Positions 97 to 10,101 of a DNA stretch of 10,732 nucleotides are shown here, one piece after another. This DNA is from a virus (taxonomy: Duplodnaviria; Heunggongvirae; Uroviricota; Caudoviricetes), in IMG/VR virus record IMGVR_UViG_2541047163_000014; one strand, 5' to 3'. A program made the position numbers and the translations under genes. The notes beneath the pieces are model-generated. The model had not been told where the DNA came from and did not search any database. It was given only the letters and a program-made list of their open reading frames with translations. The stretch's first letter is position 1. Every line of letters begins with the position of its first letter.

Positions 97-106
97 TGGG
101 GTGAAT

Positions 107-3022
107 ATGGCAGTAAAGATTTCAGGTGTACTGAAAGACGGCACAGGAAAACCAGTACAGAACTGCACCATTCAACTGAAAGCCAGACGTAACAGCGCCA
201 CGGTGGTGGTGAACACGGTGGCCTCTGAAAATCCGGATGAAGCCGGTCGTTACAGCATGGACGTTGAGTACGGTCAGTACAGCGTTATTCTGTTGGTGGA
301 AGGGTTCCCGCCGTCACATGCCGGGACCATCACCGTGTATGAAGATTCTCAACCCGGTACGCTGAATGATTTTCTTGGTGCCATGACTGAGGATGATGTC
401 CGTCCGGAGGCACTGCGCCGTTTTGAGCTGATGGTGGAAGAGGTGGCGCGTAACGCGTCCGCGGTGGCACAGAACACGGCAGCCGCGAAGAAGTCAGCCA
501 GCGATGCCAGCACATCAGCCCGTGAGGCGGCAACCCATGCGACTGATGCTGCGGACTCAGCACGCGCAGCCAGCACGTCAGCCGGACAGGCCGCGTCGTC
601 GGCTCAGTCAGCGTCTTCCAGCGCAGGAACGGCATCAACAAAGGCTACTGAAGCATCAAAAAGTGCTGCCGCTGCAGAGTCCTCAAAAAGCGCGGCGGCT
701 ACCAGTGCCGGTGCGGCGAAAACGTCAGAAACGAATGCGGCAGTGTCACAACAATCAGCCGCCACTTCTGCATCCACCGCGACCACGAAAGCGTCAGAAG
801 CTGCCTCCTCAGCCAGGGATGCGTCGGCTTCAAAAGAGGCGGCAAAATCATCAGAAACGAGCGCAGCCTCGAGCGCCAGTAGTGCAGCCTCCTCGGCAAC
901 GGCGGCAGGCAATTCCGCGAAGGCGGCCAAAACGTCTGAGACAAACGCTAAGTCCTCTGAAACGGCAGCAGAACAGAGTGCCTCCGCAGCAGCAGGCTCA
1001 AAAACAGCGGCTGCATTATCTGCCAGTGCCGCGTCAACAAGTGCCGGGCAGGCCTCAGCCAGTGCCACCGCCGCCGGAAAATCGGCAGAAAGTGCCGCAT
1101 CGTCTGCTTCAACAGCCACAACGAAGGCTGGCGAAGCCACTGAACAGGCCAGCGCAGCAGCGAGTTCTGCTTCCGCAGCGAAGACATCCGAAACGAACGC
1201 GAAAGCGTCGGAAACCAGCGCAGAATCCTCAAAAACGGCTGCCGCATCGTCAGCCAGTTCGGCGGCGTCATCGGCATCATCTGCGTCTGCTTCAAAAGAT
1301 GAGGCGACCAGACAAGCGTCAGCAGCGAAGAGCAGCGCCACGACGGCATCCACGAAGGCGACAGAGGCAGCTGGTAGTGCGACGGCAGCAGCTCAGAGCA
1401 AAAGTACGGCGGAATCTGCAGCAACGCGCGCTGAGACAGCGGCAAAACGGGCAGAGGATATTGCATCCGCCGTGGCGCTTGAGGATGCGAGCACGACGAA
1501 AAAGGGGATAGTACAGCTCAGCAGTGCGACTAACAGCACTTCCGAGTCACTGGCGGCAACGCCAAAAGCCGTTAAGGCCGCGTATGAGCTGGCTAACGGG
1601 AAATACACCGCACAGGATGCAACGACAGCACAGAAAGGGATAGTTCAGCTTAGCAACGCGACCAACAGCACATCTGAAATGCTGGCGGCAACGCCAAAGT
1701 CGGTAAAGGCAGCCTATGACCTTGCTAACGGGAAATATACTGCTCAGGACGCTACGACAGCACAAAAAGGAATTGTCCAGCTCAGTAGTGCAACCAACAG
1801 CGCATCTGAAACGCTTGCCGCGACACCGAAAGCAGTGAAAGCAGCTAATGATAATGCGAATGGTCGGGTACCTTCTGCCCGTAAGGTGAATGGTAAGGCG
1901 CTTTCATCGGATATAACACTGACGCCGAAAGATATTGGTACGCTTAACTCAACAACAATGTCATTCAGCGGTGGTGCTGGTTGGTTCAAATTAGCAACGG
2001 TAACCATGCCACAGGCGAGTTCTGTTGTTTCAATTACGTTGATTGGTGGCGCGGGATTTAACGTGGGGTCACCTCAACAGGCAGGTATATCTGAACTTGT
2101 TTTGCGTGCAGGTAATGGTAATCCGAAGGGGATTACTGGTGCTTTATGGCAGCGCACATCGACAGGGTTTACAAATTTTGCCTGGGTCAATACATCTGGT
2201 GATACTTACGATATTTACGTTGCAATCGGAAATTATGCGACTGGTGTAAATATTCAATGGGATTATACCAGTAATGCCAGCGTGACGATTCATACGTCAC
2301 CAGCATATTCTGCTAATAAGCCGGAAGGGTTAACGGACGGTACAGTTTATTCACTCTATACGCCATCAGAGCAGTTTTATCCGCCTGGCGCACCAATCCC
2401 GTGGCCATCAGATACCGTTCCGTCTGGCTATGCCCTGATGCAGGGGCAGACTTTTGACAAATCTGCATACCCGAAACTTGCAGCCGCTTATCCGTCAGGC
2501 GTGATCCCTGATATGCGTGGCTGGACGATTAAGGGCAAACCTGCCAGTGGTCGGGCCGTATTGTCTCAGGAACAGGACGGCATTAAATCGCACACCCACA
2601 GCGCCAGCGCATCCAGTACGGATTTGGGGACGAAAACCACATCGTCGTTTGATTACGGCACTAAATCCACGAATAACACCGGGGCGCACACGCACAGTGT
2701 GAGCGGTACAGCCGCAAGTGCCGGAAACCATACTCATAGTGTCACAGGCGCATCAGCAGTCAGCCAGTGGTCACAAAATGGGTCAGTACATAAGGTAGTG
2801 TCTGCGGCCAGTGTGAATACAAGTGCTGCAGGAGCGCACACTCATAGTGTCAGCGGCACAGCTGCATCTGCAGGTGCTCACGCACATACTGTCGGTATTG
2901 GTGCTCATACGCACTCTGTTGCGATTGGCTCACATGGACACACCATCACCGTTAACGCTGCGGGTAACGCGGAAAACACTGTCAAAAACATCGCATTTAA
3001 CTACATTGTGAGGCTTGCATAA
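107..3022 (+). CDS. stf: Side tail fibre protein, lambda Stf / StfR-like (the ORF track starts at GTG 101; ATG 107 giving [12 protein letters not shown] is the more likely start)
   Basis: N-terminus [26 protein letters not shown]...[34 protein letters not shown] matches the lambda Stf N-terminal domain as I remember it. It is followed by a long Ala/Ser/Thr-rich low-complexity shaft, three tandem ~42-aa repeats ([42 protein letters not shown]) and a C-terminal module with His-x-His repeats ([15 protein letters not shown]...) ending [11 protein letters not shown], typical of Stf / P2 gpH / T4 gp37-type fibre tips. GGGG lies upstream of the ATG. Confidence 0.93.
1490..1850 (+). repeat. Three tandem ~126-bp coding repeats (42-aa units) within stf
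   Basis: Protein-level triple repeat [43 protein letters not shown] / [44 protein letters not shown] / [30 protein letters not shown]. The DNA copies differ mostly at synonymous positions. Confidence 0.8.
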
Positions 3023-3600
3023 TGGCATTCAGAATGAGTGAACAACCACGGACCATAAAAATTTATAATCTGCTGACCGGAACTAATGAATTTATTGGTG
3101 AAGGTGACGCATATATTCCGCCTCATACAGGTCTGCCAGCAAACAGTACCTATATTGCACCGCCAGATATTCCGGCTGGCTTCGTGGCTGTTTTCAACAG
3201 TGATGAGGCATCGTGGCATCTCGTTGAAGATCATCGGGGTAAAACGGTTTATGACGTGGCTTCCGGCGACGCGTTATTTATTTCTGAACTCGGTCCGTTA
3301 CCGGAAAATGTTACCTGGTTGTCGCCGGATGGAGAGTGTCAGAAGTGGAACGGCACATCCTGGGCGAAAGATGCAGAAGCAGAAAAACTGTTTCGGGTAC
3401 GGGAGGCAGAAGAAACAAAAAACAGCCTGATGCAGGTAGCCAGTGAGCATATTGCGCCACTTCAGGATGCCGTAGATTTGGATATTGCGACGGAGGAAGA
3501 GGCATCGTTACTGGCTGCATGGAAGACATATCGGGTATTGTTGAATCGTGTTGATACAACAGTAGCAGCGGATGTTGAGTGGCCAGTCGCCCCACAATAA
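3022..3600 (+). CDS. tfa: Tail fibre assembly protein (Tfa family chaperone)
   Basis: 192-aa product directly downstream of stf, with the ATG overlapping the stf TAA stop (TAATG). The sequence ([49 protein letters not shown]...EWPVAPQ) resembles lambda/Rac-type Tfa proteins, and the position is the canonical one for a fibre chaperone. Confidence 0.88.
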
Positions 3601-3606
3601 AAAGAA

Positions 3607-3636
3607 AAAGCCATCGACAGAAATATCGATGGCTTT
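3607..3636. terminator. Bidirectional intrinsic terminator between convergent tfa (+) and the acetyltransferase gene (-)
   Basis: 11-bp perfect stem aaagccatcga / tcgatggcttt with an 8-nt loop. T-rich tracts flank it on both strands (CTTTTTCTTTTTATT on the - strand, TTTATGT on the + strand). Confidence 0.75.
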
Positions 3637-3643
3637 ATGTACT

Positions 3644-4216
3644 CTATTTATACAATACAACACCACTCTTTTTAGTTATATATGTGCAGTTTGATGGTAT
3701 ATCTTTATTTATAAAAGACATTGCACCTATTTTTACATTATCCCCAATTTTACGTGATAATCCAATGATGCAACAATTAGCTCCGATATCAACGTTACTA
3801 CCAATTTTTACTCTTGAACTAGGCATATCACCATCTATCTGTCCAATGGTAGTATTCTGTCGTAATACCAGATTTTCACCCGCATCAACAGCAAAATGAA
3901 CAACAATTCCAGCATGATGGGGAATTGTCAACCCTTTTCCAATATTTGCGCCCAATCCTATTTCACAACCAAACTTGTTAATTATTTTACTGTTTAACTT
4001 TTTGGCTGCTTTCTTATGTAATTTATTACCATTAATATACATTTCGTTAGCCAACCGCCACCAGAAAAGGAAATTCCGGTTACGCTGCTTTTTCTCTCTT
4101 AAAAGCCTCCAGATATCCATACGTTTCCGCCGAATTACTTCATGTTTCCAGAAGTTTTTTAAATTAGTAGAGTTTCCAAATAAAACAAAGTGAATTGCCA
4201 TTAAGTAAGATAGCAC
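3644..4216 (-). CDS. Hexapeptide-repeat (left-handed beta-helix) acetyltransferase, serine-acetyltransferase (CysE/WcaB)-like; AT-rich moron. Start probably GTG 4216 (AAGGAG 6 nt upstream) or ATG 4201; the ORF-track GTG at 4249 is less likely
   Basis: Translation contains the SAT-family core ...FWWRLANEMYINGNKLHKKAAKKLNSKIINKFGCEIGLGANIGKGLTIPHHAGIVVHFAVDAGENLVLRQNTTIGQIDGDMPSSRVKIGSNVDIGANCCIIGLSRKIGDNVKIGAMSFINKDIPSN. That is an amphipathic N-terminal helix segment followed by [LIV]-G-x-x-x-x hexapeptide repeats. G+C is strikingly low (roughly one-third by eye) compared with the flanking phage genes. Stop is TAG at 3644-3646. Confidence 0.8.
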   Translation of the reverse strand: MLSYLMAIHFVLFGNSTNLKNFWKHEVIRRKRMDIWRLLREKKQRNRNFLFWWRLANEMYINGNKLHKKAAKKLNSKIINKFGCEIGLGANIGKGLTIPHHAGIVVHFAVDAGENLVLRQNTTIGQIDGDMPSSRVKIGSNVDIGANCCIIGLSRKIGDNVKIGAMSFINKDIPSNCTYITKKSGVVLYK

Positions 4217-4267
4217 GATAATCTCCTTAATTATTATTTCAGACCACACATGTTATAAGGTTAAGAG

Positions 4268-4296
4268 ATTATAAAATCCTGTTATTTGTTATTCAA
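4268..4296 (-). promoter_or_regulatory. Near-consensus sigma70 promoter for the acetyltransferase gene (-35 TTGAAT, 17-bp spacer, -10 TATAAT on the - strand)
   Basis: Read on the - strand: TTGAAT-AACAAATAACAGGATTT-TATAAT, about 50 nt upstream of the AAGGAG ribosome-binding site and GTG 4216. Confidence 0.6.
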
Positions 4297-4372
4297 AAAC
4301 AATTTTCTGAGAAGGACATACAACAGCAAGTCGCCAGTCACCTTCATCAGGAAATTGGCGACATACGTTAAA

Positions 4373-4867
4373 TCAGAGCAGCCCCTTAACTGAGCTGGCC
4401 GCGCTATTAAGGGATGATGTCACCTTATCTTTGAAGCCGGACAGCATATCGCTGAACGATGAGGATTGCAGGCGCTCCCGCAAATCCTCATCACAGCGTT
4501 CAAGAGTCAGTGAAAATTCTATCTTTTTCGCCTTACCGTAGCGATCAAACTCGGAGCGGGTCGTATTCGTTCCGGTCAGGACATACATGCCGTAAATCTG
4601 CCCGACGCCATCAATCAAAGGCCAAGGACGTCCTGTATATGCCTGCGTGGTCAACAACGACAGCGACACTTCGCCACCAGTAATCTCAGGATAAAGAACA
4701 CCAGAAAGAACGATGCGATCATCACCTGCACCGATATACTGCCAGCTTGCTGAACGGTTAACGCGTTCATTTTTCACATGTCGCCAGCTTTTGTTTTGCT
4801 GTAACTGCTGATGCGGCAACGTGCGCAGCTCAAAAACAAACATGCCGTAGATCATCATCATGGCCAT
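4373..4867 (-). CDS. Phage tail protein, P2 gpU-like (true start may be one of the ATGs at 4861/4858 rather than 4867)
   Basis: Translation MAMMMIYGMFVFELRTLPHQQL...IVLSGVLYPEITGG...IYGMYVLTG...KIEFSLTLERCDE... matches the conserved gpU family pattern. It lies immediately downstream of the tape measure stop, as in the P2 FI-FII-E-T-U-D order. Confidence 0.85.
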   Translation of the reverse strand: MAMMMIYGMFVFELRTLPHQQLQQNKSWRHVKNERVNRSASWQYIGAGDDRIVLSGVLYPEITGGEVSLSLLTTQAYTGRPWPLIDGVGQIYGMYVLTGTNTTRSEFDRYGKAKKIEFSLTLERCDEDLRERLQSSSFSDMLSGFKDKVTSSLNSAASSVKGLL

Positions 4868-8760: not shown

Positions 8761-9944
8761 CAGGCACCTCCCAGCACCGCAAATGCGGGACCAAAGAATT
8801 CATCAGTAAACGACTGGTAAAGCTCCATGTCTTCCAGCGGAGGAACGGGCGTATATTTGTAGCGAATACGCACACGCCCCTGACGTAAATTCGTGGTGCT
8901 GTTATCCTCGATGTCATACCAGCACTCCGCGCCAATCAGTTTCCCGGCAGTAACCAGTGAATCCAGTTTTGCCCTGATGGCACTGATAACATCCTTCACG
9001 TTCGCAGGTGTCAGTGGACTGTCGATGGTTTCAAACTGCGCTTCCGCAATTGAATCAGCCAGCACCTGTGCGGTTCGGGTATACACCTCAAAGATGTAGG
9101 CGTTCGTTTCCGGTGTGCGGTTGCCCCAGAAGCGGAACCCGTTGCGACGAATAATGGTCGTGATTTCTTTGTTGTTGAGGCTGTTGGCATCACTGTCTTC
9201 GGCCTGCAACGACCAGAACACATGCCTCGACATCCCAAGCACATTTTTAACCGGAACGTTGGACAGCGATTTGTGCCAGCCCTGCTCATGGTCAATGTAC
9301 GCACGAAGGCCGCACGCATAAGCAGGCGCGGGGAACGTTTCGTTTTTGCCACTTTTCAGGTTGTAGGCGATGAAGTCAGGCCATAAGAGCATCACCTCAC
9401 GTTCGTTGAATTTCTGGCGGTAGGTAATCGCCTCAGCCATCGTGTTACAACCATGACATGTGGCATACACAAACGCGCGCAGTTTACCCGCAATCACGCA
9501 CAGGGATTTTGTTACCGCCTCCGTGTCCAGCTCCGGCGCGGCCAGAATACGCGGACGGTATCCGATGCTTTCATCCTGCTCTGCAACAAGCAGCGCATAC
9601 ATCCCCGTATAGCTGCCGTCAGATTCAGAACCACCGATAACCAGTTGATCCTGCGTCTTACCGCCTTCTTCTTTGTGTTCAGCCACGCGAACGACGATCA
9701 CTTTTGTGCTCACCTGGTCTGCGATAGCCTTAAGCGCACGATAAAGCGTCCCCGTAGTCCCGCATTTTCCCAGCACGTCATTGACGCGGGTCAGCAGTGT
9801 GGGCTTGTTCAGCGGGAACAGCTCCGCGTCCGCATCATCTGCCGTTGCCACGATACCGATAACACTGGAATCAACATCATTAATCGCTGTTACCAGGTCG
9901 GTACTTTCCGTAACACGGGCACCATGAAAACGAGTTTCACTCAT
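8760..9944 (-). CDS. Contractile tail sheath protein, P2 gpFI-like
   Basis: 394-aa product (MSETRFHGARVTESTDLVTAINDVDSSVIGIVATADDADAELFPLNKPTLLTRVNDVLGKCGTTGTLYRALKAIADQ...) resembling P2 FI-family sheath proteins. AAGGGG ribosome-binding site 8 nt upstream of the ATG. It lies immediately upstream of the tube gene. Confidence 0.9.
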   Translation of the reverse strand: MSETRFHGARVTESTDLVTAINDVDSSVIGIVATADDADAELFPLNKPTLLTRVNDVLGKCGTTGTLYRALKAIADQVSTKVIVVRVAEHKEEGGKTQDQLVIGGSESDGSYTGMYALLVAEQDESIGYRPRILAAPELDTEAVTKSLCVIAGKLRAFVYATCHGCNTMAEAITYRQKFNEREVMLLWPDFIAYNLKSGKNETFPAPAYACGLRAYIDHEQGWHKSLSNVPVKNVLGMSRHVFWSLQAEDSDANSLNNKEITTIIRRNGFRFWGNRTPETNAYIFEVYTRTAQVLADSIAEAQFETIDSPLTPANVKDVISAIRAKLDSLVTAGKLIGAECWYDIEDNSTTNLRQGRVRIRYKYTPVPPLEDMELYQSFTDEFFGPAFAVLGGA

Positions 9945-10101
9945 AGCTTCAGCCCCTTGTATCCGTTAAATGATTCGGCAACAATCATCACCCACCACGC
10001 GCGTAATCTCACCCCTGCGCCGTTCTCCCGCCACGGCGACAACAAAAAGCAGTAACCCCCTCCGCACGCACATGCGACCATGCCGCACAGGGAGGGAACA
10101 G

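Follow-up and report, generated by a model that had tools for sequence, protein, structure and literature searches.

A mobile acetyltransferase gene in the Z/fun-equivalent slot of a P88-like Escherichia coli prophage, with a surface glycan as its candidate target

The DNA analysed here (the window) is a 10,732-nucleotide stretch of IMG/VR virus record IMGVR_UViG_2541047163_000014 and forms part of a P2-family prophage of Escherichia coli. Between its tail fibre assembly gene tfa and the tail gene gpU lies a small AT-rich gene coding for an acetyltransferase with a left-handed beta-helix (LbetaH) domain. We found that this gene is horizontally acquired prophage cargo, or a moron, in a variable slot equivalent to the Z/fun locus of phage P2. 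From its sequence it is a real enzyme gene under purifying selection, and its surroundings favour a surface glycan as the target over an intracellular role in defence. Three genes define the slot.

3022-3600, plus strand: tfa, tail fibre assembly gene of the lambda Tfa type (Pfam Caudo_TAP, 6.4e-40)
3644-4216, minus strand: LbetaH acetyltransferase resembling serine acetyltransferases (SATs), 190 aa, with a GTG start codon at 4216-4214 and a TAG stop codon at 3646-3644
4373-4867, minus strand: gpU, final gene of the inverted FI-FII-E-T-U operon (Pfam Phage_P2_GpU, 1.5e-38)

According to the P2 annotation, the V-operon terminator is directly followed by fun(Z), which converges on G. The acetyltransferase gene has the same geometry, downstream of and convergent with G/tfa, so that an earlier note on this DNA was correct, in the positional sense, to speak of the Z/fun position. 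The same note had proposed a variable moron locus, and near-identical prophages do differ in what the slot holds. This was determined by a census of 80 IMG/VR loci with a gpU at least 99% identical, the counts being phylogenetically non-independent.

27 of 80 loci: the acetyltransferase of the window, always with the same tfa type
5 intact and 1 truncated of 80: a second LbetaH acetyltransferase
6-7 of 80: an AT-rich glycosyltransferase of family GT9
about 36 of 80: a DNA invertase with alternative fibre and tfa genes, as in cultured type phages
about 4 of 80: nothing (empty slot)

The tfa type was the same in 27 of the 27 IMG/VR loci that had both a window-type acetyltransferase and enough DNA, and the lambda-type tfa family accompanied all three sugar-enzyme cargos and none of the invertase loci. 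Complete E. coli genomes yielded the same slot alternatives. Position, convergence, atypical GC content and variable presence were all those of a Z/fun-type cargo locus.

Several variants of the slot were observed in the course of this survey. The second acetyltransferase (L122:6658-7221; also in loci L127, L135, L145 and L170, and truncated in L130) is 37% identical to the first, has Tyr in place of the His100 that is near-invariant in the family, keeps the WWRI helix motif without the RQN motif, and gives weak hits to Vat/CatB (~1e-5). The GT9 of the slot is WP_001100987.1, with a GC content of 0.32-0.35; it was found at L098:5695-6873 (E. coli XJ6-3) and at IMG/VR loci L116, L120, L134, L138, L144 and L177. 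In some sister prophages, seen in complete E. coli genomes (L013-L017, 6617-7605), the acetyltransferase gene is separated from an intact tfa by a tfa fragment and an additional gene for a class I S-adenosylmethionine-dependent methyltransferase; their acetyltransferase is a mosaic, with a divergent middle, ends identical to those of the window and a promoter that is identical or nearly so. Beside the slot DNA invertase of L160 (7999-9452) are three tandem, fibre-tip-like open reading frames (ORFs) of ~155 aa with nearly identical N-termini, which suggests a multi-cassette invertible fibre system.

The acetyltransferase gene is tail to tail with tfa and therefore moves with the fibre-tip/tfa module in phage exchanges. 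Positions 3000-4215 of the window, comprising tfa, the terminator and the acetyltransferase coding sequence, form one block that is 91.5% identical to the P1-like phage JL22, and the homology ends at the acetyltransferase start codon. JL22 has the gene between tfa and U', inside its cin-invertible C segment, and the P1-like Ro157c2YLVW has the same arrangement. The cassette is also found at the end of a third backbone, that of a prophage whose tail is of the baseplate-J/DUF2612 kind. Convergence with tfa extends to more distant homologues, those of Citrobacter phage phiNP (44% identical, downstream of hicAB) and Hafnia phage yong2 (35% identical). Among 80 one-per-species loci, the convergence was seen in five (two from Gilliamella and one each from Buttiauxella, E. 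coli and Salmonella). In the ESSI2 P2-like phages, a homologue adjoins int at the end of the phage.

Two other relatives were noted in different surroundings. One, 57% identical (P0030; L003-L007, 6001-6573) and with 594 indexed blocks in the sequence collection, follows hok/gef where an HP1/P2-like prophage remnant ends next to copA. The other, 50% identical (P0039; L008-L012, 6001-6594), is found among insertion sequence (IS) fragments on enteropathogenic E. coli adherence factor (EAF)-type plasmids, where the last gene resembling the bfp operon lies ~2.3 kb upstream of it.

The gene is common in E. coli, being carried by 530 of 5426 complete genomes (~1 in 10) and intact in 510 of the 530, with 66 of its places on plasmids. 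Many O157:H7 strains have a copy of 100% identity, and O103 and O111 strains one of ~97%. RefSeq calls the 573-nt coding sequence in the same frame and with the same start. The P1-like copies have ATG at the codon of the window GTG (4216) and ATA where the window has a downstream ATG (4201), indicating that GTG 4216 is the true start. The ORF of roughly 190 aa described earlier on the strand opposite tfa is thus one of exactly 190 aa on the minus strand, convergent with tfa. Its AT-richness relative to the flanking phage genes was also borne out, with a GC content of 0.33-0.35 over 3601-4350 (tfa 0.50, tail block 0.49-0.60) and a third-position GC content of 0.29 compared with 0.41 in tfa and 0.56 in gpU. 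The gene is compositionally foreign. It is under purifying selection, with a dN/dS of 0.14 relative to the P1-like copy and of 0.12 relative to a 71%-identical prophage copy (dS at least 0.38).

Profile and structure searches agree with the assignment of the protein as a hexapeptide-repeat acetyltransferase of the CysE/WcaB type. Hexapep and Hexapep_2 were the sole Pfam matches, with Hexapep at 24.1 bits, slightly under its threshold of 27, and Pfam Hexapep is on record for most homologues. PHROG 2154, a family of unknown function, matched with an E value of 2.9e-87, residues 13-190 aligning with positions 3-181 of the 185-position profile. A profile built from 24 homologues matched solved serine acetyltransferases, the best at 1.6e-23. 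The AlphaFold model based on that 24-sequence alignment had a poor beta-helix (pLDDT ~55) and gave weak Foldseek hits; it was superseded by a run with a 100-sequence alignment, which reached a pLDDT of 96.4. All top 50 PDB hits of the latter in Foldseek were SATs (probability 1.00, TMq 0.72-0.76), and the model has the SAT fold, a helical N-domain followed by a left-handed beta-helix. Homology to the SAT chains is limited to query residues 53-180, which leaves 10 residues up to the C-terminus. His100, aligned to CysE His158, is conserved in 99 of 100 homologues, and position 85, aligned to CysE Asp143, is acidic in all of them (55 Asp, 45 Glu). The protein is very basic (pI 10.15), and its maximal 19-residue hydropathy is 1.1, so that no membrane-spanning segment is predicted.

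The acetyltransferase passes none of the curated enzyme-family cut-offs tested (CysE, WcaB, EpsC). The best NCBIfam models were EpsC (76.2 bits, cut-off 150), CysE TIGR01172 (62.4 bits, cut-off 210.65) and WcaB (54.4-55.8 bits, cut-off ~195). With such scores, and with its gene in a prophage and not in a polysaccharide cluster, the protein does not belong with WcaB or EpsC. It has no acyltransferase-3 (AT3) domain of the Oac/OafA/GtrC kind and no family-level similarity to the NeuO/NeuD sialate acetyltransferases. NeuO, named earlier as an example of the nearest analogues, is only a distant relative. Tandem or heptanucleotide repeats were searched for in the gene and none was found, as the earlier note had remarked for repeats of the NeuO type; phase variation like that of NeuO was rejected for this reason.

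The following expression signals were identified around the gene.

4223-4228, minus strand: Shine-Dalgarno sequence AAGGAG, read from the sequence, 6 nt 5' of the GTG; kept in the L013 prophage
4268-4296, minus strand: predicted sigma-70-like promoter, TTGAAT (4296-4291), a 17-nt spacer and TATAAT (4273-4268); 10/12 consensus match
3607-3636, both strands: hairpin terminator with a 13-bp stem, between the stop codons of the convergent tfa and acetyltransferase genes

The claims made previously about these signals fared unequally. The strong Shine-Dalgarno sequence is in place, at 4228-4223. The elements of the near-consensus promoter are present too, but they are no commoner than chance: four promoter-like matches were found in the AT-rich stretch and 3.3 were expected by shuffling, which makes the match plausible and statistically unexceptional. 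The promoter is almost identical in the L013 prophage, although the acetyltransferase of the latter is only 71% identical, and in the P1-like copies the DNA upstream of the gene differs from that of the window. A dedicated bidirectional terminator had been proposed, and the hairpin is indeed stable on both strands. On the minus strand (-20.5 kcal/mol, z -7.1) it is followed by the U-run UUUUUCUUUUU, whereas on the plus strand (-16.1 kcal/mol, z -5.8) it has a short UUU tail only. The terminator is strong for the acetyltransferase gene and weaker for tfa, a proper U-run being found in the former direction only. Lastly, the gene had been called stand-alone. It does have its own predicted promoter and its own terminator, but it is not fully stand-alone, since it follows gpU on the same strand after a gap of 156 nt. 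We found no significant hairpin between the two genes; the best candidate (z -0.65) was no better than shuffled sequence and was rejected as a terminator. Read-through from the late tail operon is thus possible.

As to function, we consider the chances about even that the gene encodes a lysogenic-conversion enzyme acetylating a conserved surface (cell-envelope) glycan. The protein would be soluble and basic, and would combine the SAT fold with an LbetaH domain; enzymes with this domain usually form trimers. With acetyl-CoA and its His/acid catalytic pair, it is predicted to O-acetylate an acceptor other than L-serine. This acceptor would be a sugar of a conserved envelope glycan, modified during assembly at the cytoplasmic face of the inner membrane. 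The leading candidate is the core oligosaccharide of lipopolysaccharide (LPS), with enterobacterial common antigen, colanic acid or the first O-unit sugar as possible alternatives; the LPS core specifically is a tentative choice, with the odds against it. Expression in the lysogen would proceed from the gene's own promoter, possibly supplemented by read-through from the late tail operon, and the altered surface presented to LPS-binding phages would bring about lysogenic conversion or receptor masking. The gene, its fold, its catalytic residues, the selection on it, the polymorphism of its slot and the mobility of its cassette are shown by the analysis, whereas we infer the acceptor, the activity of the promoter and the phenotype, including the receptor masking, superinfection exclusion or serotype conversion suggested in the earlier note. 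The evidence on the acceptor comes from the contexts that follow.

The best matches of the slot GT9, themselves weak, are the LPS heptosyltransferases RfaQ and WaaC. In an Orbaceae genome, a 36%-identical homologue of this phage GT9 is located 44 nt upstream of an acetyltransferase homologue and on the same strand (the loci where the two are neighbours are L027:6839-7957 and L053). In Zophobihabitans, the acetyltransferase homologue is found among three GT9 genes, a polysaccharide pyruvyltransferase gene and a GT25 LPS glycosyltransferase gene. The Orbaceae clusters that hold both homologues are of the lipooligosaccharide (LOS)/LPS-core type. At six Pseudomonas/Halopseudomonas loci, the homologue is beside NeuB, and a kinase-family gene of ~200 aa is directly upstream in all five of the loci where an upstream gene of at least 100 aa was called. 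A representative of these kinases matches Pfam APH, with an HldE-like gene nearby. Three immediate neighbours in the one-per-species survey match the Kdo/WaaP LPS-kinase family. Phages P1, P2 and Mu adsorb to the LPS core. The same enzyme (at least 97% identical) is present in O157, O111 and O103 strains, whose O-antigens are chemically different, which argues against an acceptor specific to the O-unit and for a conserved one. Finally, the receptor of phiNP, which carries one of the homologues, was shown experimentally to be the LPS core (PMC6456863).

Other observations weigh against a glycan target, or against the LPS core in particular. Most one-per-species homologues are in unrelated contexts, for instance next to POT transporter/GGDEF genes or downstream of yejM, and with immediate neighbours this heterogeneous the LPS link rests on a minority made up of Orbaceae, Pseudomonas/Halopseudomonas and the phage slots. 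The end of the fibre operon is generally permissive for cargo genes, so that adjacency to tfa may reflect tolerance of insertions and not function. GT9 also includes adhesin heptosyltransferases, and the GT9 link is therefore not specific to LPS. To our knowledge, the characterised LPS/LOS O-acetyltransferases (OafA, Lot3, Lag-1, Oac, GtrC) are all membrane AT3 proteins, and none is a soluble LbetaH enzyme. The predicted promoter, as described above, is not statistically distinctive (4 vs 3.3 by shuffling). A literature search on the protein accession, on prophage LbetaH acetyltransferases and on Z/fun cargo found no functional study, and the gene has been listed as a "fitness" gene or as one of unknown role (PMC6456863, PMC9603915).

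An extension of the surface-glycan proposal takes in both the acetyltransferase and the GT9 that replaces it in sister prophages. They may be phage modifiers of the conserved LPS core and not of the O-antigen, coupled to the fibre tip and tfa as an exchangeable cassette for receptor binding and receptor masking. Such a cassette would move among LPS-binding myoviruses (P2-like, P1-like and others), the defective O157:H7 prophage being one of its carriers. We consider this reading doubtful.

The alternative that survives best is an intracellular target other than a glycan (for instance a protein, a metabolite, a signalling nucleotide, an antibiotic or another xenobiotic), in which case the gene would serve in resistance or metabolism, or as a novel single-gene defence against phages, and would not modify the surface. 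We regard this as unlikely. The Z/fun locus has been reported to carry defence genes (PMC13586616; bioRxiv 2024.10.15.618418), and the LbetaH superfamily includes the Vat/CatB xenobiotic acetyltransferases, to which the second slot acetyltransferase has its weak similarity. The high pI is compatible with such a target, and most genomic contexts of the homologues are uninformative. However, the scores of the protein with Vat/CatB are far under the cut-offs and weaker than those with EpsC, CysE and WcaB. The alternative cargo of the slot includes a glycosyltransferase, and homologues lie near GT9, GT25, NeuB and LPS-kinase genes. The earlier note had raised an uncharacterised defence factor; a known defence system was rejected, since no family among the PADLOC-DB 2.0 defence-protein models matched at an E value of 0.1 or less.

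That the protein is a genuine serine O-acetyltransferase, an auxiliary metabolic enzyme raising O-acetylserine and cysteine synthesis in the lysogen, is very improbable. RefSeq and other sources do name it serine (O-)acetyltransferase, its closest solved structures are SATs, and the catalytic His/acid pair is kept. The residues of CysE that bind L-serine, which we take to be Asp157, Arg192 and His193 (E. coli numbering), are nevertheless not conserved. Pro99 occupies the position of Asp157, where the family has Pro, Ala, Gly, Phe, Val or Ile, and Ser134 and Arg135 occupy those of Arg192 and His193, both variable in the family; this comparison covers the three positions named, as CysE Asp92/Pro93 could not be aligned. 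The protein has 190 aa, compared with ~273 in CysE; its N-terminal domain is largely missing, and it has no C-terminal tail. CysE depends on these parts to form hexamers, to bind CysK and for its feedback inhibition. To the TIGR01172 score given above is added that of NF008349, another CysE model (36.6 bits, cut-off 397), and the alternative cargos of the slot are sugar enzymes. A true SAT was rejected on the serine-binding residues, the length and the model scores, and the sequence does not support the database name.

Least probable of all is a functionless or decaying hitch-hiker kept by linkage to the frequently exchanged tfa module: the window prophage is defective, its O157:H7 copy is further degraded and an AT-rich gene may be silenced, but the low dN/dS holds across P2-like and P1-like copies, nearly all carrier genomes have the gene intact (510 of 530), the catalytic residues are conserved over 100 homologues, and the gene persists even as phage genes on either side of it are decaying.

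The rest of the window confirms the P2 family for what had been called a P2-like locus, but the backbone is specifically P88-like (Peduoviridae), with an inverted tail block. The latter is 92-97% identical to those of Xuanwuvirus P88, Gemsvirus 500465-2 and Citrobacter phage phiSM, and comparison of annotations showed that the FI-U tail operon of P88-like phages is inverted relative to that of P2. It is this inversion that places the acetyltransferase gene directly behind gpU and on the same strand. The other genes are the following.

101-3022, plus strand: tail fibre gene, 973 aa
7713-5587, minus strand: tape-measure gene T
8193-7828, minus strand: E
8760-8248, minus strand: tube gene FII
9944-8760, minus strand: sheath gene FI
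after FI, plus strand: gpD

FI and gpD point away from each other on either side of a short region (9944-10100), as in the P88-like (Xuanwuvirus/Gemsvirus) architecture. Homology to the gpD of P88 and 500465-2 ends at ~10369, and the final 360 nt of the window encode, on the minus strand, C-terminal pieces of transposases of the IS30 and IS3 families. With gpD cut by these IS remnants, the window prophage is defective. The O157:H7 copy is more degraded, with a truncated tape-measure gene and IS1203. The tail fibre gene has a long Ala/Ser/Thr-rich low-complexity stretch (400-1500), which accounts for many long spurious ORFs in other frames, and at its C-terminus are His-rich repeats of the T4 gp37/lambda Stf kind.

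The new lead is a recurrent tfa-acetyltransferase cassette, with GT9 as an alternative cargo of its slot. The gene is found in O157:H7 and other Shiga-toxin lineages, essentially identical, and survives inside decaying prophages. If its acceptor were the LPS core or another conserved envelope glycan, this would be a lysogenic conversion undocumented in coliphages, which are known to convert the O-antigen rather than the core. It would then bear on host-range prediction and on the design of phage therapy for enterohaemorrhagic E. coli, and receptor-modifying enzymes would be heritable as a unit with receptor-binding modules. If the acceptor were otherwise, the gene would still be a widespread and selected single-gene cargo of prophages in a well-studied hotspot.

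Compared with CysE (4n69, 6wye/7ra4, 8i04, 1t3d), the protein has the same catalytic His and acidic partner and presumably the same acetyl-CoA donor. It differs in being ~80 residues shorter at the N-terminus and in having no C-terminal tail, in its family-specific first 50 residues, in the loss of the serine-binding residues, in its scores far below the curated cut-offs, and in the location of its AT-rich gene on mobile elements. WcaB (colanic acid) and EpsC are of the same size class (~150-190 aa), provide the best-scoring curated models and are, like the window protein, presumed to work in the cytoplasm on sugars linked to a lipid or a nucleotide. In contrast to theirs, the window gene lies outside any wca or eps cluster and scores well under the cut-offs, and its product has distinct motifs, WWR[LI]A in an N-terminal helix and RQNTTIG.

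P2 fun(Z) is likewise directly downstream of and convergent with G/tfa, past the V-operon terminator, and is a low-GC, non-essential cargo of the lysogenic-conversion type in a slot that varies among related phages. The two proteins are unrelated, however, and, owing to the inverted tail block, the P88-like slot has gpU at its border where that of P2 has FI. Sf6 Oac, GtrC/OafA and CUS-3 NeuO, which are prophage-borne, expressed in the lysogen, and alter both surface polysaccharide and phage sensitivity, provide the working model for the gene. Oac, OafA and GtrC differ from its product in being integral-membrane AT3 proteins, as the latter has neither a membrane span nor an AT3 match. Prophage cargo consisting of glycan-type acetyltransferases in a known hotspot is already known, and the gene described here is an uncharacterised addition to it.

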